Shown: positions 1 through 38,681 of the stretch, piece after piece
Layout: each line of letters opens with the position of its first letter
Position numbering within the stretch: position 1 is the first letter of the stretch
Origin: a virus
Taxonomy: Duplodnaviria; Caudoviricetes
Reading direction: 5' to 3' (one strand)
Virus record (IMG/VR): IMGVR_UViG_3300005470_000011
Coordinates: 1 to 38,681 of that record
Length of the DNA stretch: 38,681 nucleotides
Notes under the pieces: model-generated
What the model saw: only the letters and a program-made list of their open reading frames with translations
Told to the model about the DNA's origin: nothing
Database searches by the model: none
Translations under genes and position numbers: made by a program

Positions 1-777
1 GATATGTATACTCAAGAAGAGTGGGAAGATATTATAAATAATAGAGATTATGATGCTGATAATCATCAACTATACACTATACATGTAGATTCTGCTGTTG
101 AACACTCTATAGAACATATAGAAAAGATAATAGCTATGACAGGTTGTAAAGATGCGGAATTATATTTTACAAGCGGCTTACACTTCAGATACATAGTTGA
201 CCCTGATTATAAAGCTAATAGAGGTGGTATGCATAGACCTCCAGGATTAAATGAAGTGAAAGCTAAAGTATTAGAACACTACTCTGGTAAAATTTGCACT
301 AAATGGGAAGCCGATGATGAAGTAGTTTATCTAAAAAAACAGCATCCAGATAGATATGTTTTATGTGCTGTTGATAAAGATGTTATCAAGTCTGTACCAG
401 GTGAGCATTGGAATTACTATCAGTCTTCTCAATATAATATTCAACCTAAATGGGTTGAGAATACTGAGCAAGAAGCTATGAGATACAACTATTTACAGGC
501 TATTATGGGAGATACAAATGATGGTATTAAAGGTGTTCCAGGGATTGGTAAAGTAGGAGCTGCAAAGTTCGTACCAGAAGATGCTACTGAACATGAGATG
601 TGGCTAGGCGTTGTTAAAGCATTTGAGTCTAAAGGATTATCTATAATAGATGCTATGATAACTATGCAATTAGTATCTATGCATCAATTAATTGAAGTAG
701 ATGGTGAACCTTATTTACATTTATTTAACCCTCAAATGTTTGAAGAGGAGATAGAGTATGAGCTTCATGAAGTTTGA
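1..777 (+). CDS. 5'-3' exonuclease / flap endonuclease (T7 gp6-like), probably 5'-truncated by the window edge
   Basis: Motifs YKANR, WEADD, DKD, GDTNDGIKGVPGIGKVGA (H3TH). The frame is open from base 1 and the N-terminal acidic motif is absent. Confidence 0.9.
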   Translation, partial: DMYTQEEWEDIINNRDYDADNHQLYTIHVDSAVEHSIEHIEKIIAMTGCKDAELYFTSGLHFRYIVDPDYKANRGGMHRPPGLNEVKAKVLEHYSGKICTKWEADDEVVYLKKQHPDRYVLCAVDKDVIKSVPGEHWNYYQSSQYNIQPKWVENTEQEAMRYNYLQAIMGDTNDGIKGVPGIGKVGAAKFVPEDATEHEMWLGVVKAFESKGLSIIDAMITMQLVSMHQLIEVDGEPYLHLFNPQMFEEEIEYELHEV

Positions 778-1045
778 TGATAAAAAGCCTAAAATGCACC
801 TGGTTGACCCTGATTTTCATGAAGATTTAAGTAGAGTACTAACATTAGGTGCACAGAAGTATGCTGAAAATAACTGGAAAAAGAATAAAGATATCAATAG
901 GTATATAAGCGCTTTAGAGCGTCACCTGCTAGAGATAAAACGGGGTAATTTTTATGATGATGAAACATTATTACAACACAGTAGTCATATAGCTTGTAAT
1001 GCTATGTTTCTACACTATATGATAGATAAGAAAAGGAGAAAATGA
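758..1045 (+). CDS. dATP/dGTP diphosphohydrolase domain protein (DUF5664-like)
   Basis: KFDDKKP...VLTLGAQKYAENNW...ALERHL...DDETLLQHSSHIACNAMFL pattern. Confidence 0.85.
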   Translation: MSFMKFDDKKPKMHLVDPDFHEDLSRVLTLGAQKYAENNWKKNKDINRYISALERHLLEIKRGNFYDDETLLQHSSHIACNAMFLHYMIDKKRRK

Positions 1046-1866
1046 TGCAGTTTGAGTTAGAGTATAGAACACTAGTAACTAAGATACTTAATAATGGTGA
1101 ACTAAGAGATACTAGAAATGGCGTAACAAGAGCTATATTTGGTGAGCAACTTAAAATAGATATAAGCAATATTGAAATACCGTTATTGCTAGGTAGAAGA
1201 ATCTATCATAGAGGTATTTTCGGTGAATTTAGTGCTTTTATGCACAATGCTAAATCAGTAGAAGAGTTTGAAAAATATGGGTGTAACTACTGGCAACTGT
1301 GGGCTGATGCCTCTGGTAGACTAGAACTAGATTATTCAGAGCAACTATTTAATTTTAATGGTGTAAATCAGTTACAAAACTTAATAACTTCGCTCAAAGA
1401 AGACCCAAAGAGTAGAAGACATATTATTAGTCTATGGAGACCTGATAGATTTGAAGATATTAGCTTACACTGTTGTCATTACGCTTACCAGTTTTATGTT
1501 GATGAGTGTAATAATTTACATATGTTATGGAATCAAAGGTCAGTTGATGTAATGGTAGGCTTACCTAGCGATATTATATTAGCTTGGTTATGGGTAAAAC
1601 TACTATGTGCTGAGCTTGGATATACTCCAGGTACTATAACTATGAGTCTTGGTGACTGTCATATTTATGAGGAGCATACTAAAGGAGCTATGCAATACTG
1701 TAGTAATGTTAGAGCTGTATATGGAGATAATAATCCGAATAGAAAAATAATGTTACCTACTGTTACACTACAAGAGTTTAGCAGTATTACAGACTTTATG
1801 GCTACAGATATAGAAGTAGATAACTACTTACCTTATGATAAAATTAGCTTTGAGTTAAAGGCTTAA
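1042..1866 (+). CDS. thyA: Thymidylate synthase-family enzyme, predicted dCMP-specific (Asp at the specificity site)
   Basis: SRRH, catalytic Cys in LHCCH, QRSVD, GDCHIYEEH; GLPSD replaces canonical GLPFN. Confidence 0.9.
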   Translation: MMQFELEYRTLVTKILNNGELRDTRNGVTRAIFGEQLKIDISNIEIPLLLGRRIYHRGIFGEFSAFMHNAKSVEEFEKYGCNYWQLWADASGRLELDYSEQLFNFNGVNQLQNLITSLKEDPKSRRHIISLWRPDRFEDISLHCCHYAYQFYVDECNNLHMLWNQRSVDVMVGLPSDIILAWLWVKLLCAELGYTPGTITMSLGDCHIYEEHTKGAMQYCSNVRAVYGDNNPNRKIMLPTVTLQEFSSITDFMATDIEVDNYLPYDKISFELKA

Positions 1867-1867
1867 T

Positions 1868-2212
1868 ATGGTAGGAGCTATATTATTAGATGCAAATAAC
1901 TATTATGTTGATGATTGTGGAGGGCTTCCCGCTAGGCCAGAATATGATAAAGAGCTACTCAAAGCTGTCTGTGCTGGTCAAACTGTGTCTTACGACGGTT
2001 ATGAAATGTTACCAAATAGCATAACACAAAATATGGGTAGACAGGGACCTGATTATTCAGTACCTATTACTATTAGAGAATTAGCAGAAGCTGATGTGCT
2101 AATAGTAGTTAGAGCTCTTAATGAGTGTAGTGGTGGTAAGAGATTCAGGTTAGATAATTTTAAACAAATTGGCTATGGAAATATTGAGATTTATATTAAA
2201 ATTAAACCATAG
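1868..2212 (+). CDS. Degenerate dihydrofolate reductase-like protein
   Basis: N-terminus (GAILLD...GGLP..PEYDKELLK) parallels the DHFR start; directly follows the thyA homologue; short and divergent. Confidence 0.45.
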   Translation: MVGAILLDANNYYVDDCGGLPARPEYDKELLKAVCAGQTVSYDGYEMLPNSITQNMGRQGPDYSVPITIRELAEADVLIVVRALNECSGGKRFRLDNFKQIGYGNIEIYIKIKP

Positions 2213-2217
2213 TTGCA

Positions 2218-2284
2218 CGAGGTTTGATTATAATCAATTTAATATAGATTTTATAGTCTAAATTTTTAAATTGATTATATCTCG
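2218..2284. repeat. Long inverted repeat / hairpin upstream of the HTH gene promoter
   Basis: Perfect 14-bp IR TATAATCAATTTAA (2229-2242) / TTAAATTGATTATA (2266-2279), inner TAGATT/AGTCTA stem, outer CGAG/CTCG. Confidence 0.75.
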
Positions 2285-2304
2285 ATTATGGACCAAATAT
2301 AAAC

Positions 2305-2336
2305 TAAGCTAAATTTAATATTAATTTCGTTATAAT
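2305..2336 (+). promoter_or_regulatory. Sigma70-type promoter
   Basis: TAAGCTAAATTTAATA-N10-TATAAT followed by an AAGGAG RBS; the motif recurs elsewhere. Confidence 0.8.
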
Positions 2337-2358
2337 ATTATATAAATAAAGGAGAGTT

Positions 2359-2571
2359 ATGAAAATTCAAGAGTTGGTATCTTCTTATATAGAAGAGGGG
2401 TTAAAAACTACAGAAATTGCTGAGAAGCTTGGTGTTTCTCAGCCTATGGTTAGTCAATATAAAAAAGGTTACAATGCTTCACTTGATGTAGCTTGTAAAG
2501 TTTATAAAGACTATAATATTGTGTTGTTTCCATTTGGAGAATATGCACTTAAGGAGCTAATCAATGGGTAA
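2359..2571 (+). CDS. XRE-family helix-turn-helix DNA-binding protein
   Basis: TTEIAEKLGVSQPMVSQYKKG HTH. Confidence 0.85.
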   Translation: MKIQELVSSYIEEGLKTTEIAEKLGVSQPMVSQYKKGYNASLDVACKVYKDYNIVLFPFGEYALKELING

Positions 2572-3154
2572 TCTAAGAGAAAATCATCCTGAGTTATGGG
2601 ATAAACCGGAGGAAAAAAGTATGAATTTACTAGAATTAGAAGAAGTAACAATTAAGTGGTCCAAAGATAGAGGTATAATAACTAATGGTAAAGCTACAAC
2701 GCAGGTTATTAAATTAACTAGTGAGTTTGGAGAGTTATGTTTTAATCTTCATACAGGTAAAGATTGTTCTGATGATATAGGTGATATGATGGTAGTTATA
2801 ACTAATATTACACAATTATTAGGTTTTACTAAGGGTATTAGCGAGTGTCCACCAAGAGGAGATGAAGACCAGTTCGGTATATTAAGAGTTGGTGATTATT
2901 TAGGTAGATTGGCTGATAATATAATTAAAAATGAAAAAGAAGAGGCTAGAACTAATATAGGTAATTTAGTTTTTCAACTTATAGATTTATCTAGCAAATT
3001 AGGTATGGACTTAGAAGATTGTTGGAATAAAGCTTATAATGATATTAAAGACCGTAAAGGTTTCTTAACCCCAGAAGGTAACTTTATCAAAGAATCTGAC
3101 TCTGCATATAATAACTATGTAGATAAAAACCAATTAACTATGGTGCTTAAGTAA
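2564..3154 (+). CDS. MazG-like nucleotide pyrophosphohydrolase
   Basis: SEFGEL...DDIGDMMV and AYNDIKDRKG motifs; all-alpha, apparently tandem domains. Confidence 0.8.
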   Translation: MGNLRENHPELWDKPEEKSMNLLELEEVTIKWSKDRGIITNGKATTQVIKLTSEFGELCFNLHTGKDCSDDIGDMMVVITNITQLLGFTKGISECPPRGDEDQFGILRVGDYLGRLADNIIKNEKEEARTNIGNLVFQLIDLSSKLGMDLEDCWNKAYNDIKDRKGFLTPEGNFIKESDSAYNNYVDKNQLTMVLK

Positions 3155-4029
3155 TGATAGCACAGTGTAAAGGCAAAGATATAAGTAAAGTATCTAAATC
3201 AAAACTATTAGAAGGTGGTTGGTATGCAAGTATTAAATATGATGGTAACTATGTACAGATACATAAGAAAGGTAATAGTATTACATTTTTTACGTCTGGA
3301 GGCAAAGAATTTTACATTGAACATATTGCTGATGAGTTATGTAATCTTAATCCTAATGTGGATTTTATTATTGAATGTGAATATATCGCTAATACTTCAG
3401 GTAAGTTGGGATGTCGTACGTCTGCTGCTAAATTAACTACATACAGAACTAACTACAGTAAAGGGCTAGAATCTGGAGCCTTTGTTGGTAATGATATATT
3501 TATGGTGTTTGATTGTATAGCTTATGGTAAAGATAGAGCATTAGTTAACTCGGATACTTTTGAAACTAGACTACAGAATCTTTATGACTTAGATTTAGGT
3601 ACTCACTGTGAAAGAGCATTTATACTAAATAATAAGTTTAGCCTAGATAAAATAGATGCTCAGCCATTTATTAATGATGGGTATGAAGGCTTATTCCTTA
3701 AACATAAAGACCATGTATATCTTCCTGGTAAAAGAGTTAATAATGCTATAAAGCTTAAAGGTAGAAAAACTGCTGACCTATTATGTATAGGAGTTGAGCC
3801 TGGCGAGGGTAAGTATGAAGGTATGATAGGCTCTTTAATATTAACAGATTCTAGTGGTAGAATAGTTAGAGTAGGTAGTGGACTAGATGATAGTGATAGA
3901 AACCTAGCATTTGATTTAGTATTTAAAAACAAGGTAATTGAGATAGAGTATGAACAAATTATTGATACTTATATTCAACCTACATATATTAGAGTTAGAG
4001 ATGATAAAACAAAAGAGGAGATAGACTAA
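3154..4029 (+). CDS. ATP-dependent DNA ligase
   Basis: KYDG motif I, VFD, GYEGLFLK, C-terminal OB fold (GEGKYEGMIGSL, VGSG). Confidence 0.92.
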   Translation: MIAQCKGKDISKVSKSKLLEGGWYASIKYDGNYVQIHKKGNSITFFTSGGKEFYIEHIADELCNLNPNVDFIIECEYIANTSGKLGCRTSAAKLTTYRTNYSKGLESGAFVGNDIFMVFDCIAYGKDRALVNSDTFETRLQNLYDLDLGTHCERAFILNNKFSLDKIDAQPFINDGYEGLFLKHKDHVYLPGKRVNNAIKLKGRKTADLLCIGVEPGEGKYEGMIGSLILTDSSGRIVRVGSGLDDSDRNLAFDLVFKNKVIEIEYEQIIDTYIQPTYIRVRDDKTKEEID

Positions 4030-4745: not shown

Positions 4746-5919
4746 ACATCAAAGTGAAATAGCTTTACAAGGTTATAATATACTAAAAGCCAACGGTTTA
4801 GTATACTTAGCTATGGAAGAACGCACAGGTAAAACTTTAACTTCTATACTAATAGCTGAGATGTCTAAAGCTATTAGTATATTAGTAATAACAAAAAAGA
4901 AGGCTATTCCAGGATGGGAGGATACACTTGAGAACTACAAAGAAGCAAGCAAAGATTATACTGTTATTAATTATGAGTCTTTACATAAGCTCGATAATAC
5001 TAAGAGTTATGATTTAATTATAGTTGATGAAGCTCATGCTAATTTATCAGCCTTCCCTAAGATAGGTAAGATATGGAAATTAGTTTATAGATTTACAAAA
5101 GATAAGCCTATTATATTCTTATCAGCTACACCTAGCGCTCAAACATATGGTCAGCTATATCACCAACTTAAATTATCTAGTTGGTCACCGTTTAAAACAT
5201 ATAAAAACTTTTATGATTGGCATAGAGCGTATGGCATAGAAAAGATTATATACTTATCTGGTAGGCAAGTTAAACAGTATAATGAAGTTAAAAGTAAAGC
5301 ATTTGAAGATTGTAACCATTTATTCCTTAGTTATACTAGAGCAGAGCTAGACTTTAAACATGAACCTGAAGATATAATACATTTAGTGGAGTTACAAAAA
5401 GAAACTAAAGAACTATATAATGAGCTAATGCAATATAGTTGTATACAAACTTTAGAGTATATGGCTGATACACCTATGAAGTTACTTATGGGATTACATC
5501 AGTTAGAAGGCGGAACATTGAAGCTAGATGATAAATCTATATTACTAGATAACACAGAAAAGATAGATTTTATATTAAATGAGTTTGGTGATATAAATGA
5601 CTTAGTTATATTCTATCATTATAAACAAGAAGAGCATAAGCTTAAGAGTTTCTTTAAAAAAGCAACTATATTACAAGCTACGTCATTTGCTGAGGGTGTT
5701 GATTTATCGATGTTTAAAACATTAGTAATCTATTCTATGGATTTTAGTACCGCAAGATATACTCAGCGTAGAGCTAGACAATGCAACATGAAGCGAGATG
5801 AGCCAATCGACGTTCATTATTTACTTTGTGAAAATACTATCTCTAGCCAAGTATATGAAACAGTAGCGGTGAATAAAAAGAACTTTGTTAATAGCTATTT
5901 TAATCGCGAAGAGATTTAG
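4732..5919 (+). CDS. SNF2-like SF2 helicase
   Basis: RPYKHQ, RTGKT, VDEAH, SATP, AEGVDL, QRRAR; start moved to ATG 4732 on the basis of an AAGGA RBS. Confidence 0.9.
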   Translation: MRPYKHQSEIALQGYNILKANGLVYLAMEERTGKTLTSILIAEMSKAISILVITKKKAIPGWEDTLENYKEASKDYTVINYESLHKLDNTKSYDLIIVDEAHANLSAFPKIGKIWKLVYRFTKDKPIIFLSATPSAQTYGQLYHQLKLSSWSPFKTYKNFYDWHRAYGIEKIIYLSGRQVKQYNEVKSKAFEDCNHLFLSYTRAELDFKHEPEDIIHLVELQKETKELYNELMQYSCIQTLEYMADTPMKLLMGLHQLEGGTLKLDDKSILLDNTEKIDFILNEFGDINDLVIFYHYKQEEHKLKSFFKKATILQATSFAEGVDLSMFKTLVIYSMDFSTARYTQRRARQCNMKRDEPIDVHYLLCENTISSQVYETVAVNKKNFVNSYFNREEI

Positions 5920-6242
5920 TTACCTAATAGTCTCTCGTCCTCAAATATAAACCTACTAGGATATTTATCTTGCATCTTCTTAAAGAAGCTAGGTGAATTA
6001 CCTCTTAGGTCTGTATCAACTCTAATCTTTTTGGTTGGGTACTTCTTTATAGTTTTCTCAACTACTTCTGTACCATAGCCTTTACCACTATCTTTAATAC
6101 CAAATAAATCCAATGATACTGTGCCATCCATATTATCTATAATAACAGCATGGTTATTATTAGGTAGTTTAATTTCAAACATACCAAACTCGTCAGCATA
6201 TTCCTCTAGGAAAGCTTCCTCATAAAACTTATTACAAGTCAT
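5916..6242 (-). CDS. GNAT-family acyl/acetyltransferase
   Basis: Motif A-like SGKGYGT and C-terminal SFFKKM. Confidence 0.6.
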   Translation of the reverse strand: MTCNKFYEEAFLEEYADEFGMFEIKLPNNNHAVIIDNMDGTVSLDLFGIKDSGKGYGTEVVEKTIKKYPTKKIRVDTDLRGNSPSFFKKMQDKYPSRFIFEDERLLGN

Positions 6243-14543: not shown

Positions 14544-15769
14544 CTATAATCTATAAATACTGTTTGTTGTGTTTGTCCCATTATAAAATCCTTTTGTGGT
14601 TTGATTAATTGTTTTTGCGTATGTGATGGAGGTAACGATATCATAGATAAGTTCATCCCGTCATAGCTTGTTTGTATTGATACAGTATCTTCAGTTTCTG
14701 TACCTCTAGACACTTCCCCTATATCACCTGAACGTATACTATCACCTCTAAATGAAGGCATACTCCCTGGAGATATATCACCTCTTTGGTCTTCAAAATT
14801 ACTTAGTGCATTTAATGTGTTATAAGTACCAAGTAATCCTATTGACATAGATAGTAACCCATATGTTCTACTAAACGACATAGCGCTAAACCCTTGACCT
14901 ATCATACCGAAGCCTAGCAGAGTACCAGCAAATACTCCTATTACTTCTACTGCTCTAGCCGCAGTTCTAACTGTATTACGAGTAGCCCCAAAAGCCTCTA
15001 GTGCATCAGCAGCTACTTCTGCTCCAAAACCAAACTGAGTATTATTACCATTCCAGTAGTGTGTATTATATGATAATGAAGAGTTACCTATTCCTATGGT
15101 TGTAGTATGGTCCATTATAGACCCATCCATAGCAGTAGAGTAGCTATCCATAGTTTCAATACCAAAGGTTTGGTCATTTACTTCTACATTCCATCCACCA
15201 AAAGCATTCTGATACGACACTGTAGTAGTTTTTGATAGTCCTAGCATACCTGACATTCTATTTACACTAATATCAGACATACCTACTGGTTTACCAGCTG
15301 AGCCTATAAGGTCATCAAAAGCTTGTTGTTCCATCATAGAAGCTATATTGTCATATCCAGTTAAATCACTAAATGATGCTCGGCTAGCATAATCATTATC
15401 TAATGCATCAAATTGCGCTTGAGCCTCTAGAAACTCTGACTCTGATATTCCATTTACTGGGTTGGCTTGCATATAGTTATGCCAACCAATGAGCCCACCA
15501 GAATCGTAGGCATTAGAAGCCTCAGTATTTTTATCTGCTTGAGCTTTCTTCTCCCCTGTTAAGTTGCCATACGAAGTATCACCTGTGCCATCTAGCCCCC
15601 CTTCATCTGTACCTCGCGCTTCATTCTGTTCAACTGATCTTTCGGCATCAGAAAACTCCTTATCAGATACGCTATCGTTATCGCTGCCTTCACTACCAGA
15701 CCCTCCATCACCACCATAGAGTTTTATTGGGGTAAAGAAATAAATTAATAATTGTATTATACTATTCAT
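14480..15769 (-). CDS. Putative virion / ejection protein with hydrophobic leader, Gly-Gly motif and membrane-type segments
   Basis: MNSIIQLLIYFFTPIKLY-GGDGGSG; hydrophobic VIGVFAGTLLGFGMIG and YGLLSMSIGLLG. Confidence 0.55.
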   Translation of the reverse strand: MNSIIQLLIYFFTPIKLYGGDGGSGSEGSDNDSVSDKEFSDAERSVEQNEARGTDEGGLDGTGDTSYGNLTGEKKAQADKNTEASNAYDSGGLIGWHNYMQANPVNGISESEFLEAQAQFDALDNDYASRASFSDLTGYDNIASMMEQQAFDDLIGSAGKPVGMSDISVNRMSGMLGLSKTTTVSYQNAFGGWNVEVNDQTFGIETMDSYSTAMDGSIMDHTTTIGIGNSSLSYNTHYWNGNNTQFGFGAEVAADALEAFGATRNTVRTAARAVEVIGVFAGTLLGFGMIGQGFSAMSFSRTYGLLSMSIGLLGTYNTLNALSNFEDQRGDISPGSMPSFRGDSIRSGDIGEVSRGTETEDTVSIQTSYDGMNLSMISLPPSHTQKQLIKPQKDFIMGQTQQTVFIDYRGGTMIEILDSNQRLSLALHF

Positions 15770-16080
15770 TATCTTATCCTAAACTCTATTATACTGTCTT
15801 TTGATACTGATAGTATTTCTGAGCTAAAAAACTGCACTATAGCTTTTATTTTTGTATAAGCTATCTTTCCAGACAGCTTAGAATAATATTTACCAAGAAG
15901 AGCAAGTTTTTCACTTTTAGTCCCTTTAAAGTAGATATAGTATATATACTCAGTATTACCAACTATTATACAATTTACTCTATTTATAAATATAGTAGAC
16001 TTACCTAAGCAATAGCTTACCATAGTGGGGTCTCCAAATAAAGCTATTAATCGACTTCTTAGCTTTTCCATACTAAGCAA
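15769..16080 (-). CDS. Hypothetical protein coupled to the ketosynthase (possible acyl transfer partner)
   Basis: Overlaps the KS stop and the downstream start (TAATG); no clear motif. Confidence 0.55.
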   Translation of the reverse strand: MLSMEKLRSRLIALFGDPTMVSYCLGKSTIFINRVNCIIVGNTEYIYYIYFKGTKSEKLALLGKYYSKLSGKIAYTKIKAIVQFFSSEILSVSKDSIIEFRIR

Positions 16081-16886
16081 CTCCCATAAAAACTACCTAA
16101 TCCACTAGCTACACATAATACTTTCCCTTTGGCCTTATTATCATCAATAACCTTACAAACTTCTATTAAAGAGCTTGCTCCTTGTGTATGGCCTATAGTG
16201 TCTTTATACAGTATAGTAGGTAAGTGCCCAAATGCTTCTTGTTCAGCCTTATTATTAACTGGTGTACCGGTGCCATGAAGTTTTACCATATCACACTCTG
16301 TAAATATTTTATCATATCCTTCTTTAGTAACTTTAAAAGGGTTGTTATCATAATGTGTTACCCATTTAGTGTCTGTTATTTTAACCTCGCCTTTATTAGA
16401 TAAAACTACACAAGCAAAGCCTTCTCCTAGTGCAAGTTCTATATTACTTTCTTTAAATACAGTTTTTGTTTTGCTAGAAGTTCGTTCTTCAGTAACTATA
16501 ATAACATTGTCTACATCACCAAGCTTTAATAATCTTTCTGCTTCATATAAAGAAAACATACTGCTAGCGCAAGTGTTACTATTAAGGTTCATATAGGTAA
16601 TGTTATTACTTTTATTAAATACCTTAGCGTACTTATGTGCTGAGTAAGACGTTAACTCCTTTATAGTTACGCTAGAATTTACTGTGACTACTCCAGAATT
16701 CCTAGCCTCACTCTGAGATACACTAACACCTATAGCATAAAGTAAGGCCGTTCTGCCCTCTAATTTTATACTACTAAGCTCTTTCTTAAACAGTTTAGTA
16801 TAGTAATCAGTCATATAGATATTATCATCTTCTATGAGCCTATTACCTATGGTGCTATGAGTATAAAAGTAGTTATTTATATACAT
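16059..16886 (-). CDS. Beta-ketoacyl-ACP synthase (FabB/FabF-like, minimal)
   Basis: NTCASS (catalytic Cys), LGEG, KLHGTGT, KDTIGHTQGASS, SGLG: the Cys-His-His triad is intact. Confidence 0.92.
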   Translation of the reverse strand: MYINNYFYTHSTIGNRLIEDDNIYMTDYYTKLFKKELSSIKLEGRTALLYAIGVSVSQSEARNSGVVTVNSSVTIKELTSYSAHKYAKVFNKSNNITYMNLNSNTCASSMFSLYEAERLLKLGDVDNVIIVTEERTSSKTKTVFKESNIELALGEGFACVVLSNKGEVKITDTKWVTHYDNNPFKVTKEGYDKIFTECDMVKLHGTGTPVNNKAEQEAFGHLPTILYKDTIGHTQGASSLIEVCKVIDDNKAKGKVLCVASGLGSFYGSCLVWKS

Positions 16887-17100
16887 TAGTTAGCCTTTCT
16901 ATATCACTAAAGGTTAAGCTTTCAAAGTCTAACTCTTTAAACTCCTCAAAGAATTTAAACTCTTCATTAATAGTTACTAGTAGCATAGTAACACCAAAAC
17001 TATCCAGTTCTGTGTCTACTATCTTCTGGTTTTCATCAATGTATACTCCACCTTCATCTTCAATAGTTTCAATTATTAAGTTTTCTAGTTCTATATTCAT
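16873..17100 (-). CDS. acpP: Acyl carrier protein
   Basis: 75 aa, very acidic, ELDSFG phosphopantetheine Ser motif, INEEF, LTFSD; adjacent to KS. Confidence 0.85.
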   Translation of the reverse strand: MNIELENLIIETIEDEGGVYIDENQKIVDTELDSFGVTMLLVTINEEFKFFEEFKELDFESLTFSDIERLTNVYK

Positions 17101-31549: not shown

Positions 31550-32032
31550 ATGAATATATTCGTATTAGACTATGATGTTAAAAAGTGTGTGGAGTATCAC
31601 TGCGATAAGCATGTTGTTAAAATGATTTTAGAGTCAGCTCAGATGATGTGCACAGTAGCTAGAGAAGTTACCGAGGATAAAATTTATGTACCATATAAAA
31701 CTACACACCTCAACCACCCTTGTACGAAATGGGCAAGAGAGTCAAGACAAAACTTCCTATGGCTAATGGATTTATTTAATGAACTACACGAGGAGTGGCA
31801 ATATAGATTTAATCATGACACTGACCACTTAAGCTATTATAAACTACAGGAAGTTGATTGGGAGTTAGTACTAGAGCAATTACCGAATATTGGATTAACA
31901 CAGTTTGCACAAGCTATGCCTGACGAATATAGAAATGATGATGCTGTTATAGCATATCGTAACTACTATATTAATGATAAGGCTGGCTTATTAACTTATA
32001 CACAAAGGAGTAAACCAGAATGGATAAAGTAA
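31550..32032 (+). CDS. Pyrimidine dimer DNA glycosylase / endonuclease V family protein
   Basis: MNIFVLD...HCDKHVVKMILESAQM, THLNHPCTKW, QAMPDEY, AYRNYY. Confidence 0.85.
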   Translation: MNIFVLDYDVKKCVEYHCDKHVVKMILESAQMMCTVAREVTEDKIYVPYKTTHLNHPCTKWARESRQNFLWLMDLFNELHEEWQYRFNHDTDHLSYYKLQEVDWELVLEQLPNIGLTQFAQAMPDEYRNDDAVIAYRNYYINDKAGLLTYTQRSKPEWIK

Positions 32033-32780: not shown

Positions 32781-33758
32781 ATGAATTTAGAAGAAACTTT
32801 AAGACTGCACGAGATGTGGTTAAATGATATAGAAGGTGGAACTAGAGCAAACCTTAGAGGAGTAAACCTTTATGGAGCAAACCTTAGAGGAGTAAACCTT
32901 TATGGAGCAAACCTTGAAGGAGTAAACCTTTATGGAGCAAACCTTGAAGGAGTAAACCTTTATGGAGTAAACCTTGAAGGAGCAATCCTTAGAGGAGCAA
33001 TCCTTAGAGGAGCAAACCTTAGAGGAGCAAACCTTCAAGGAGCAAACCTTAGAGGAGCAAACCTTCAAGGAGCATACCTTCAAGGAGCAATCCTTAATGA
33101 AGTGAACCTTAGAGGAGCAAACCTTCAAGGAGCATACCTTCAAGGAGCAATCCTTAATGAAGTGAACCTTAATGAAGTGAACCTTAGAGGAGTAAACCTT
33201 TATGGAGCAAACCTTGAAGGAGCAAACCTTAATGAAGTGAACCTTGAAGGAGCAAACCTTTATGGAGCAAACCTTGAAGGAGCAAACCTTAATGAAGTGA
33301 ACCTTGAAGGAGCAAACCTTTATGTAGCAAACCTTAATGAAGTGAACCTTAATGAAGTGAACCTTGAAGGAGCAAACCTTAGAGGAGCAAACCTTAGAGG
33401 AGCAAACCTTCAAGGAGCAAACCTTAGAGGAGTAAACCTTGGAGGAGCAAACCTTGAAGGAGCAAACCTTAGAGGAACAAACCTTGGAGGAGCAAACCTT
33501 GAAGGAGCAAACCTTGAAGGAGCAATCCTTAGAGGAGCAAACCTTAGAGGAGCAAACCTTGAAGAAGCAGATGGATATTACTCTTTTGTTGCATATGATA
33601 CAAGCAAGAGAATTGTTCATTGTTTTAAGAATAAAAATAATTGGATGATTAAAGCTGGTTGTTTCTGGGGAACTATTGAAGAACTAGAAGAGAAAGTTAA
33701 AGCAACACACAATAGCAAAGTATACCTTGCTAATATTGAAATTCTAAAAGGATTATAA
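32781..33758 (+). CDS. Pentapeptide repeat protein
   Basis: About 48 (A/V)NLxG repeats plus C-terminal IKAGCFWGT domain. Confidence 0.95.
   Translation: MNLEETLRLHEMWLNDIEGGTRANLRGVNLYGANLRGVNLYGANLEGVNLYGANLEGVNLYGVNLEGAILRGAILRGANLRGANLQGANLRGANLQGAYLQGAILNEVNLRGANLQGAYLQGAILNEVNLNEVNLRGVNLYGANLEGANLNEVNLEGANLYGANLEGANLNEVNLEGANLYVANLNEVNLNEVNLEGANLRGANLRGANLQGANLRGVNLGGANLEGANLRGTNLGGANLEGANLEGAILRGANLRGANLEEADGYYSFVAYDTSKRIVHCFKNKNNWMIKAGCFWGTIEELEEKVKATHNSKVYLANIEILKGL
32844..33563 (+). repeat. 15-bp coding tandem repeat, ~48 units
   Basis: GGAGCAAACCTTNNN unit with higher-order block duplications. Confidence 0.95.
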
Positions 33759-37335: not shown

Positions 37336-38681
37336 ATGAAAAAAGTACAATGGAGAATATGTGAATCTTTAGAGGAGGTTCAACACTTAACTACAGAACA
37401 TCCAACGTTCGCAGATATAGAAACTCATGGTTTTTATATTAATACACGACTTGTTCAAGTTTATCAACCAGCAACGGATGATACTGTATATATTTTAGAT
37501 ACCGATATACTAGACTTAAACGAGATTAAAGCTTGGTTAAAACCTATGTGGACTATATGGCAAGGTTGTACATACGATTTTGGTACTCTTAATATGACTA
37601 CTGATAAGTTTGATGATACATTATACATGGCACGTTCAGCTTACCCTGAGTGGAAAGAATTTAAGCTAGATAATATAGTTACGCAACTAGGTTTTGATTA
37701 TTTATATGCTGGATTAGATAAAAAAGAGATGCAAAAGATGGGATTCGTTCCTGGGGCATATCTATCACAGAATCAATTACGTTATGCTTGTGCTGATGTT
37801 GTTGCTCTTAGTTTAATTTGGGAAGACAGAAAGATTCAAGAGACCAGAAATATATTCTCTTATATTATTGATATTATTTCTGTTAAATATTCTATTGAAT
37901 ATCAACAAAATAGTTTATTAGTAGACCAGTCAGCAGTTCGTAAAGAGCTAGATACAATTGAAATAGCTATTAAAGAGTATGAAAAGAAACTTGGTGGGCT
38001 TAATTGCAATTCGCCTAAGCAATGTAAAGAAGCACTAGGTACAGATTCTACAAGCAAAGAAACCCTTATTAAACTAATTGGTGAAGGTAATGAACTTGCT
38101 GAAGCTGTATTTAAACAAAGAAGACAGTTAAAGCGTAGAACATTTTTACATAGCTATAACTACCCTTATGTTGAAACAAGATTTAATCCAGCAGGAGCTG
38201 CAACTGGCAGATTTACATCAACTGGCGGTGATTTACCTAGAGGTATTAATGCTCAACAAATTACTCGTGACTTACAGTATATATTCCATCAACCTGATGA
38301 TACTACATCAGTTGTACATGCAGACTTTAGTACTGCTGAGCTTAGGGCTGGTTGTAGTATTATGAAAGATGAAGCTATGTATAATGAGCTTATGAGTGGT
38401 ATGGATTTACATAAGATTGCTGCAACATTTGCGATTGATAAAGCTCCAACTGAAATTACAAAAGCTGAACGTCAAAAAGGTAAAGCTATTAGTTTTGGGT
38501 TTATTTTTGGCATGAGTGCACCATCATTTCAAGAGTATGCTTATGTTAACTATGGTGTTACCTTTACATTAGAAGAGTGTAAAGCTATTAAAGCTAAATA
38601 TAATAATAAATATACTGGTATTAGTAGTTATCACAAACAAATGTGGAATAGCTATAAACGTACTCCAGTAGAGACTCCTAG
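37336..38681 (+). CDS. polA: Family A DNA polymerase with 3'-5' exonuclease, 3'-truncated by the window edge; not in the ORF track
   Basis: MKKVQWR...; ADIET exo I, YACAD exo III, ATGRFTS, NAQQ, ADFSTAELR motif A, DLH, RQKGKAISFGFIFG motif B. Confidence 0.95.
   Translation, partial: MKKVQWRICESLEEVQHLTTEHPTFADIETHGFYINTRLVQVYQPATDDTVYILDTDILDLNEIKAWLKPMWTIWQGCTYDFGTLNMTTDKFDDTLYMARSAYPEWKEFKLDNIVTQLGFDYLYAGLDKKEMQKMGFVPGAYLSQNQLRYACADVVALSLIWEDRKIQETRNIFSYIIDIISVKYSIEYQQNSLLVDQSAVRKELDTIEIAIKEYEKKLGGLNCNSPKQCKEALGTDSTSKETLIKLIGEGNELAEAVFKQRRQLKRRTFLHSYNYPYVETRFNPAGAATGRFTSTGGDLPRGINAQQITRDLQYIFHQPDDTTSVVHADFSTAELRAGCSIMKDEAMYNELMSGMDLHKIAATFAIDKAPTEITKAERQKGKAISFGFIFGMSAPSFQEYAYVNYGVTFTLEECKAIKAKYNNKYTGISSYHKQMWNSYKRTPVETP

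Follow-up and report, generated by a model that had tools for sequence, protein, structure and literature searches.

A thymidylate synthase-fold enzyme with Asp177 as the predicted dCMP methylase of an AT-rich podophage

Does the gene of the thymidylate synthase (ThyA) fold at the left end of IMG/VR record IMGVR_UViG_3300005470_000011 (Caudoviricetes) make thymidylate, or does its product methylate deoxycytidine monophosphate (dCMP) and so alter the cytosines of the whole genome? The stretch analysed, termed the window, comprises positions 1 to 38,681 of that record, 38,681 nucleotides in all. An earlier note on this DNA had predicted a dCMP methylase and a cytosine-modified genome, favouring plain 5-methylcytosine (5mC). 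The same reading is preferred here, with a probability of roughly 0.77: a dCMP methylase would give the phage a largely 5mC genome, which would block most type II restriction enzymes. It is supported by residue diagnostics, by the gene content of the equivalent slot in a sister genome (G007), and by a restriction-site signature. The synthase features are as follows.

1042..1866, + strand: ThyA-fold enzyme with Asp177 (274 amino acids), predicted dCMP C5-methyltransferase (5-methyl-dCMP synthase); PF00303 (E 1.7e-58), alignment and model
1465..1479, + strand: Leu142-His-Cys-Cys145-His146 (E. coli Leu143, Cys146 and His147), comprising hydrophobic gate, catalytic Cys and retained His; alignment
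1570..1572, + strand: Asp177 codon GAT, base-selecting residue; aligns with E. coli ThyA Asn177

The synthase was aligned with E. coli ThyA, T4 gp42 and the enzymes of phages Xp12 and PaMx74, translated from database records. Asp177 lies in the motif QRSVDVMVGLPSD of open reading frame (ORF) 1042-1866 and aligns with Asp179 of T4 gp42 and with the Asp of the Xp12 and PaMx74 enzymes. Among the best 120 of 260 homologues (one being the window's own record), 117 carry Asp and three Asn at this position, so Asp177 is neither a chance event nor a sequencing error. The previously proposed Asn-to-Asp switch at 1570-1572 is borne out by these data. So is the catalytic Cys in LHCCH: Cys145 (codon 1474-1476) corresponds to E. 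coli Cys146, and window His146 to His147. In E. coli numbering, used hereafter, the enzyme retains Arg21, Glu58, Trp80, Trp83, Tyr94, Arg126/127, Leu143, Cys146, His147, Gln151, Gln165, Arg166, Ser167, Asp169, His207 and Tyr209. Its predicted model (mean predicted local distance difference test score, pLDDT, 94.5) matches ThyA structures with a template modelling (TM) score of about 0.87.

The L. casei single mutant N229D already methylates dCMP, and removal of the His improves this activity. Replacement of Asn177 by Asp changes ThyA specificity from deoxyuridine monophosphate (dUMP) to dCMP, and no positions distinguish cytosine-modified from unmodified contigs more strongly than 177 and 147 (PMC8670742, excerpt). 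A role of the Asp in cytosine specificity is described in PMC5175136 (excerpt) as well. Five of seven natural Asp177 synthases gave 5-methyldeoxycytidine (5mdC) in E. coli alongside T4 gp1 (bioRxiv 2024.12.05.627091, excerpt). The product depends on two further positions: Leu143 leads to methyl, Asp or Glu143 to hydroxymethyl, and Asn169 to hydroxyl products (PMC13326640, excerpt). The window synthase has Leu at position 143 and not the Asp/Glu of the T4 gp42 type, and Asp169 is present in 121/121 aligned rows, where the Asn169 of the RB69 gp48 type was not seen. Leu143 together with Asp169 thus argues for methyl chemistry rather than hydroxymethyl or hydroxyl formation.

In a quick tree, the family synthases form one clade (Shimodaira-Hasegawa-like approximate likelihood ratio test, SH-aLRT, 100), apart from Xp12/PaMx74 and from T4 gp42. 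The Asn177 rows are nested within this clade (three changes; one origin possible). The synthases of loci L015 and L017 form a sub-lineage with Val143 and a Val for His147, nearer the Xp12 pattern.

For the restriction-site signature, blocked sites were defined as those of enzymes not cutting fully 5mC Xp12 DNA (PMC7653180, Table S3, excerpt) and include 40 six-base palindromes. For the ratios, observed counts were divided by those expected under a maximal-order Markov model. Four statistics were compared between 23 Asp177 genomes and seven comparison genomes (T7, SP6, VP4, ICP2, RIO-1, T1 and G001); genomes are related, and counts are not independent. T7, SP6 and T1 are taken to be canonical-base phages, and VP4, ICP2 and RIO-1 are presumed to be so. 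The groups differ in GC-only 4-5-mers (p 0.006), in all blocked palindromic 4-5-mers (p 0.009) and in the 40 blocked six-base palindromes (p 5e-7). The six-base ratio is 0.87 (143/165) in the window, 0.85-1.21 in 25 Asp177 genomes (the 23 above and two more, at 0.93 and 0.94), 0.89 in both Xp12 and PaMx74 (first 50 kb each) and 0.94 in G007. Six lytic controls range from 0.40 to 0.75, the temperate NrS-1 has 0.82, and genomes G001-G003, with a ThyX-like gene in the synthase slot, have 0.62-0.69. The Asn177 member G029 reaches 0.59 (179/303) and the Asn177 fragment G030 0.74. Significantly low motifs number 5 of 24 testable ones in G029, 0/32 in KF-1, 0/27 in VPMS1 and 0/9 in the window. Among 38 partial loci of at least 15 kb, the lowest and the fourth-lowest ratios belong to the two Asn177 loci. 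Within the family, the site signature follows residue 177. It supports a shielding of cytosine sites at the family level and, more weakly, for the window alone.

Two other composition signals were set aside. GATC is depleted in the window (1 vs 102 expected), which at first resembled a 5mC signature because MboI/DpnII cut Xp12 DNA; it was rejected as evidence, since T7, VP4, ICP2 and RIO-1 deplete GATC too. The CpG ratio of 0.40 was not used: in the family, the extent of CpG depletion varies with GC content, and Xp12 shows none.

The genes around the synthase were examined for their part in a modification pathway. The window is an incomplete phage contig (38.7 kb, 33% GC) without terminal overlap; its right end cuts a family A polymerase and its left end a 5'-3' exonuclease. 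The gene order is polymerase, exonuclease, DUF5664, synthase, mini-DHFR (dihydrofolate reductase), helix-turn-helix (HTH) protein, MazG-like enzyme and ligase.

37336..38681, + strand: family A DNA polymerase, truncated where the contig ends (448 amino acids read; 558 in the closest complete relative); family search
1..777, + strand: 5'-3' exonuclease lacking its start, left border of the slot; family search
758..1045, + strand: stand-alone DUF5664 (PF18909, E 4e-27) helical domain; candidate non-P-loop 5-methyl-dCMP kinase or dUTP/deoxynucleoside triphosphate (dNTP) pyrophosphatase
1868..2212, + strand: minimal DHFR-fold protein of 114 amino acids with invariant Asp27, predicted folate recycling; alignment and model
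2359..2571, + strand: small HTH protein, conserved right border of the slot; family search and genome comparison
2564..3154, + strand: MazG-like nucleoside triphosphate (NTP) pyrophosphatase, candidate dCTPase; PHROG 1992 (E 1e-42)
3154..4029, + strand: ATP-dependent DNA ligase; family search

Sister genome G007, with a polymerase 60% identical to that of the window, has the same frame of polymerase, exonuclease, DUF5664, slot, HTH, MazG and ligase. Its slot contains a homologue of T4 gp42 (35%, E 5e-37), a GNAT-like gene and a carbamoyltransferase, which match the 5-hydroxymethylcytosine (hmC)-carbamoyl pathway (PMC8670742, excerpt). A separate ThyX gene after the ligase would supply dTMP. 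The G007 cassette (L228:7279-12339) is a candidate complete hmC-carbamoyl set plus ThyX, with DUF5664 present and no P-loop kinase found in it. In the close mutual relatives G001-G003, the slot is occupied by DUF6378 and by genes resembling ThyX and a nucleoside deoxyribosyltransferase, together with a YfbR-like HD hydrolase (G001 = L219:1010-3258, - strand). Their ThyX-like protein has a Cys at the ThyX-motif position where Ser is presumably the usual residue. The differing contents in G007 and G001-G003 identify the slot as a swappable pyrimidine cassette. In its closest different case, G007, the slot plainly appears to serve cytosine modification, judged by its gene content.

ORF 1868-2212, called DHFR-like in the earlier note, had no DHFR match in the Pfam search, and the assignment is supported by the predicted model instead. 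In a 13-member alignment Asp27 is invariant (13/13), with weak matches to DHFR sequences (E 0.07-2.3). The alignment-based model (pLDDT 95) gave a VIA match to DHFR 1vdr (Z 8.3, root-mean-square deviation 3.0, 110 residues aligned). Foldseek top rows were all DHFR, RibD-type reductases scoring nearly as high. The protein is about 45 residues shorter than bacterial DHFRs and is predicted from its model to be a minimal DHFR recycling folate. An Atlas match to RAMPs was dropped because the source model was poor (pLDDT 0.37). The ORF and its 13 homologues constitute a DHFR-fold family of 111-137 amino acids missed by Pfam. Methylation by ThyA oxidises folate. A DHFR fits methylation, since methylation, unlike hydroxymethylation, consumes tetrahydrofolate (THF). 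For comparisons across the family, 83 synthase loci were reduced to 60 by removal of near-duplicates and of loci with <3 kb downstream or <1 kb upstream; DHFR was detectable in just 14 of the 60.

The DUF5664-like flank and the nearby MazG-like gene are as the earlier note had them. The removal of competing dNTPs, which it assigned to this pair, is now less well founded: the only free DUF5664 characterised so far hydrolyses dATP, dUTP and dGTP with a kcat of 0.05-0.48 per second, slower than Dut enzymes (PMC12884076, excerpt), and both DUF5664 and this MazG type occur in unshielded relatives. DUF5664 is also found in G029 (Asn177) and in RIO-1 (no annotated synthase), and is therefore not specific to modification. 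The MazG-like protein is ~52-54% identical in the matched part to MazG of G007, G014 and the unshielded G001-G003 (54% for the last group). Deaminase-DUF5664 fusions occur in KF-1 (L001:17611-18219), L002:6361-7110 and L004:19048-19647, annotated as dCMP deaminase or hypothetical protein, and a deaminase is present in 44/60 loci. No linked deaminase was found in the window by ORF or six-frame search, its missing end being unseen, nor in the complete closest relative G015.

The proposed pathway starts from the full ThyA active site with Asp177, Leu143 and Asp169 seen in the sequence. Judged by mutants and validated homologues, dCMP and methylene-THF would be converted into 5-methyl-dCMP and dihydrofolate. 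The minimal DHFR, with the fold given by its model, would regenerate THF. Phosphorylation of 5-methyl-dCMP would be catalyzed by DUF5664, at somewhat less than even odds, or else by host kinases. In the weakest step, the MazG-like enzyme or DUF5664 would turn dCTP into dCMP, feeding the methylase and excluding cytosine. Finally, the phage polymerase would incorporate 5mC. With no deaminase encoded, dTTP would be supplied by the host.

The kinase step was searched in particular. A deoxynucleoside monophosphate (dNMP) kinase was found neither in the window (ORF scans and six-frame search) nor in G015, G007, KF-1, PH1, VPMS1, Amaethon or the whole Xp12 genome. Older literature reportedly describes a 5-methyl-dCMP kinase activity induced by Xp12. 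Among the 60 loci, 56 have exactly one of DUF5664, DUF6378 and DUF1599 and no kinase, and the other four have none of the three helical domains but carry a P-loop kinase, which weakly matches T4 dNMP kinase (E 0.0014). Loci with both, or with neither, number 0/60 each (Fisher p 2e-6, with loci related and profiles built from the same loci). The kinase label requires about three changes on the quick tree, one of them nested in the DUF6378 group. Functional replacement is the simplest reading of this mutual exclusion. DUF5664 may thus be the missing kinase instead of a dNTP remover. A precedent is T7 gp1.7: this DUF3310 protein has been connected with nucleotide kinase activity (PMC10700055, excerpt). 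Profile comparisons among DUF5664, DUF6378 and T7 gp1.7 found no homology (DUF5664 vs T7 gp1.7: hhalign probability <=0.2%, shallow profiles). For DUF5664, sequence search gave no solved relative and Atlas returned its own family only. The earlier note, whose statement that no dNMP kinase or glycosyltransferase is recognisable holds for the scanned ORFs, had taken the lack as favouring plain 5mC. It is a gap in the pathway and no argument; Leu143 and the DHFR argue for 5mC in its place.

A wider proposal, doubtful as a whole, would extend these observations to the entire KF-1/PH1/VPMS1 family. All its members would be cytosine-modified via the swappable cassette, by 5mC from an independently evolved, His147-retaining ThyA or by carbamoyl-hmC in the sister. 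DUF5664, DUF6378 and DUF1599, whose present labels are diphosphohydrolase or unknown, would be non-P-loop kinases (phospho- or pyrophosphotransferases) activating modified dCMP. If true, these helical domains supply the missing kinase step of Xp12-type pathways, and the slow dNTP hydrolysis by DUF5664 is a side reaction.

Several observations weigh against a methylase and a largely 5mC genome. His147 is kept in 121/121 aligned rows, where Xp12 and PaMx74 have Pro and T4 Thr, although position 147 ranks second among the differential positions of modified contigs (PMC8670742, excerpt); the change of His147 is regarded as a correlate of modification rather than a shown requirement. Two of the seven tested Asp177 enzymes yielded no 5mdC (bioRxiv 2024.12.05.627091, excerpt). 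With the non-palindromic blocked sites, no difference between the groups emerges (p 0.42). CATG (48 vs 114 expected) and CAGTG, sites blocked by 5mC in vitro, are avoided in the window, and CATG is avoided in G007 too (0.24). The test on the window is low-powered (nine motifs with an expectation of at least 5), and its 0.87 is below the shuffled-hexamer control of 1.07. The Asp177 loci L017 (0.61) and L050 (0.71) are also low among the 38 partial ones. The window contains no kinase, deaminase or proven dCTPase, and a strict dCTPase role of its MazG type is not assured, as unshielded relatives share it. In the literature examined, no lineage member was found reported as base-modified.

One alternative is an ordinary thymidylate synthase: Asp177 would be tolerated, dUMP methylated and the DNA canonical, with DUF5664, which many relatives carry as a fusion with a deaminase, as one half of a dCTP deaminase/dUTPase pair supplying dUMP. 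The complete ThyA fold is retained along with His147, Gln151 and Gln165, three relatives have a ThyX-like gene in the slot, and the characterised DUF5664 hydrolyses dUTP (PMC12884076, excerpt), KF-1, PH1 and Amaethon having the fusions. The recurrence of Asn177 inside the clade indicates that the enzyme could go either way by few changes. This explanation is nevertheless unlikely. Asp177 changes the specificity in published mutants and natural enzymes (available excerpts), the Asn177 member and ThyX-slot genomes avoid restriction sites where Asp177 genomes mostly do not, and G007 has a modifying enzyme in the slot and its ThyX elsewhere.

A true dCMP methylase may also leave the genome only partially methylated, or most of its product may be converted by deamination into thymidine nucleotides (C to 5mC to T), protection being incomplete. 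The absence of an evident dCTPase or kinase, the MazG type common to unshielded relatives, the residual CATG avoidance and the pooled ratio of 0.87 agree with this, as does the conversion of 5mC to T by deaminases linked to such synthases (bioRxiv 2024.12.05.627091, excerpt), given a deaminase in 44/60 loci. Neither the window nor its complete closest relative G015 encodes one, and the pooled ratio matches that of fully substituted Xp12 (0.89) and of the window's A/T-only palindromes (0.88); this outcome is considered slightly less probable still than an ordinary synthase. Least credible is a 5-hydroxymethyl- or 5-hydroxy-dCMP product, possibly modified further. A hydroxymethylase cassette exists in sister G007, and several window ORFs are unannotated, including the GNAT-like 5916-6242. 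Retained Leu143 and Asp169, the DHFR-fold gene directly after the synthase, 22% identity to T4 gp42 and the separate branch make such a product very improbable, and neither a glycosyltransferase nor a carbamoyltransferase was found among the window ORFs in family scans. Methylation of dCMP leading to a largely 5mC genome remains the preferred reading.

By sequence comparison, the phage is a member of the KF-1/PH1/VPMS1 podophage group. The cultured phages closest by synthase (39-45% identity) are KF-1, IW-1, ETP-1, ZHX, PH1, Amaethon, VPMS1 and two spring-water genomes. The window capsid matches 12 GenBank records, and the synthase search is headed by the identical set. Asp177 is present in 6/6 phages inspected among the nine best cultured matches, and Pelagibacter phage Kolga also has Asp. 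In a capsid-based scan, 80 loci were kept out of 210; 30 of them, chosen for the length or closeness of their contigs, were taken, of which 28 were searchable and 21 at least 90% complete. A ThyA-fold gene occurs in 18 of these 21 near-complete relatives, 17 being of the Asp177 type and one different (G007). The Asp177 synthase is hence a near-core gene of this podophage family (17/21). Literature searches on the base composition of KF-1, PH1, VPMS1, Amaethon, ETP-1, ZHX, IW-1 and Kolga gave nothing relevant, subscription papers being outside their reach. A GTDB scan yielded three distant loci and identified no host, and a search for control genomes by polymerase yielded a single locus, which was unrelated. 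L294, a 43.7-kb contig binned in a Gracilibacteria genome, carries a 43%-identical synthase and is possibly a binned phage.

Other genes of the window were recorded in passing. Amid the virion genes, region 15769-17100 (- strand) comprises a ketoacyl-synthase-like ORF 16059-16886 (PF02801, PF08545), a 75-amino-acid ORF and a 103-amino-acid ORF. The 75-amino-acid ORF is acyl-carrier-protein-like by eye, without a family match. Among the compared genomes, the ketoacyl-synthase-like ORF recurs in G023 only (52%); virion-protein acylation is possible. ORF 5916-6242 (- strand) is GNAT-like by eye and has no family match. A DenV-like pyrimidine dimer glycosylase (PF03013) is encoded at 31550-32032 (+ strand), and a long pentapeptide-repeat protein at 32781-33758 (+ strand).

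The prediction covers a widespread family whose cultured members carry a plain thymidylate synthase annotation. Its natural controls, namely Asn177 members, the hydroxymethylase sister and the ThyX-slot sisters, tie one residue to genome-wide restriction-site evolution. The strict gene swap suggests which protein may be the missing modified-dCMP kinase. Chemistry, diagnostic residue and neighbourhood have already been published (Xp12, MetaGPA); new are the assignment to a family that includes cultured phages, the controls inside that family and the kinase candidate.

Compared with known systems, the window enzyme shares with E. coli ThyA the fold (TM about 0.87), 28% identity and the other catalytic residues, and differs by Asn177 to Asp, Lys48 to Arg, Ile79 to Tyr and Phe176 to Ser. 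T4 gp42 has the Asp at 177 and the pre-replicative logic in common with it, at 22% identity and on a separate branch. T4 gp42 combines Asp143 and Thr147 with a hydroxymethyl product, whereas the window has Leu143, His147 and a DHFR. KF-1 (Edwardsiella, Kafunavirus), PH1 (Pseudoalteromonas), VPMS1 (Vibrio) and Amaethon (Dickeya) share capsid, polymerase and Asp177 synthase with the window, the latter annotated as plain thymidylate synthase. Unlike the window, most of them have deaminase-DUF5664 fusions (VPMS1 has DUF6378 and no deaminase) and a pyrophosphatase of the PRA-PH type.

The MetaGPA neighbourhoods of Asp177 synthase, PRA-PH, dCMP deaminase and Pol A (PMC8670742; bioRxiv 2024.12.05.627091, excerpts), with PRA-PH and Pol A as typical neighbours in the latter, have the diagnostic residue in common with the window. 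Their neighbour families recur in KF-1, PH1, Amaethon and 44-50/60 loci; the window lacks the deaminase. Members of the lineage may already be included among the synthases tested in bioRxiv 2024.12.05.627091. The modules of Xp12 (Xanthomonas, MT664984) and PaMx74 (Pseudomonas) resemble the window in the ThyA fold, Asp177, a hydrophobic residue 143 and Asp169, in an NTP pyrophosphatase, a small helical domain and a DHFR as neighbours, and in low avoidance of 5mC-blocked six-base palindromes. As in the window, a P-loop dNMP kinase is not recognisable in Xp12. The window differs by its His147 (Pro in Xp12), by DUF5664 in place of a DUF1599 fused to PRA-PH, by the lack of a deaminase and by its 114-amino-acid DHFR, and it represents an AT-rich podophage, Xp12 and PaMx74 being GC-rich siphophages. 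The likeness to Xp12 drawn in the earlier note stands for the logic of the pathway and does not extend to orthology, the phylogeny placing the two enzymes on separate branches at 23% identity. The window enzyme is predicted to work like that of Xp12 without being its orthologue.

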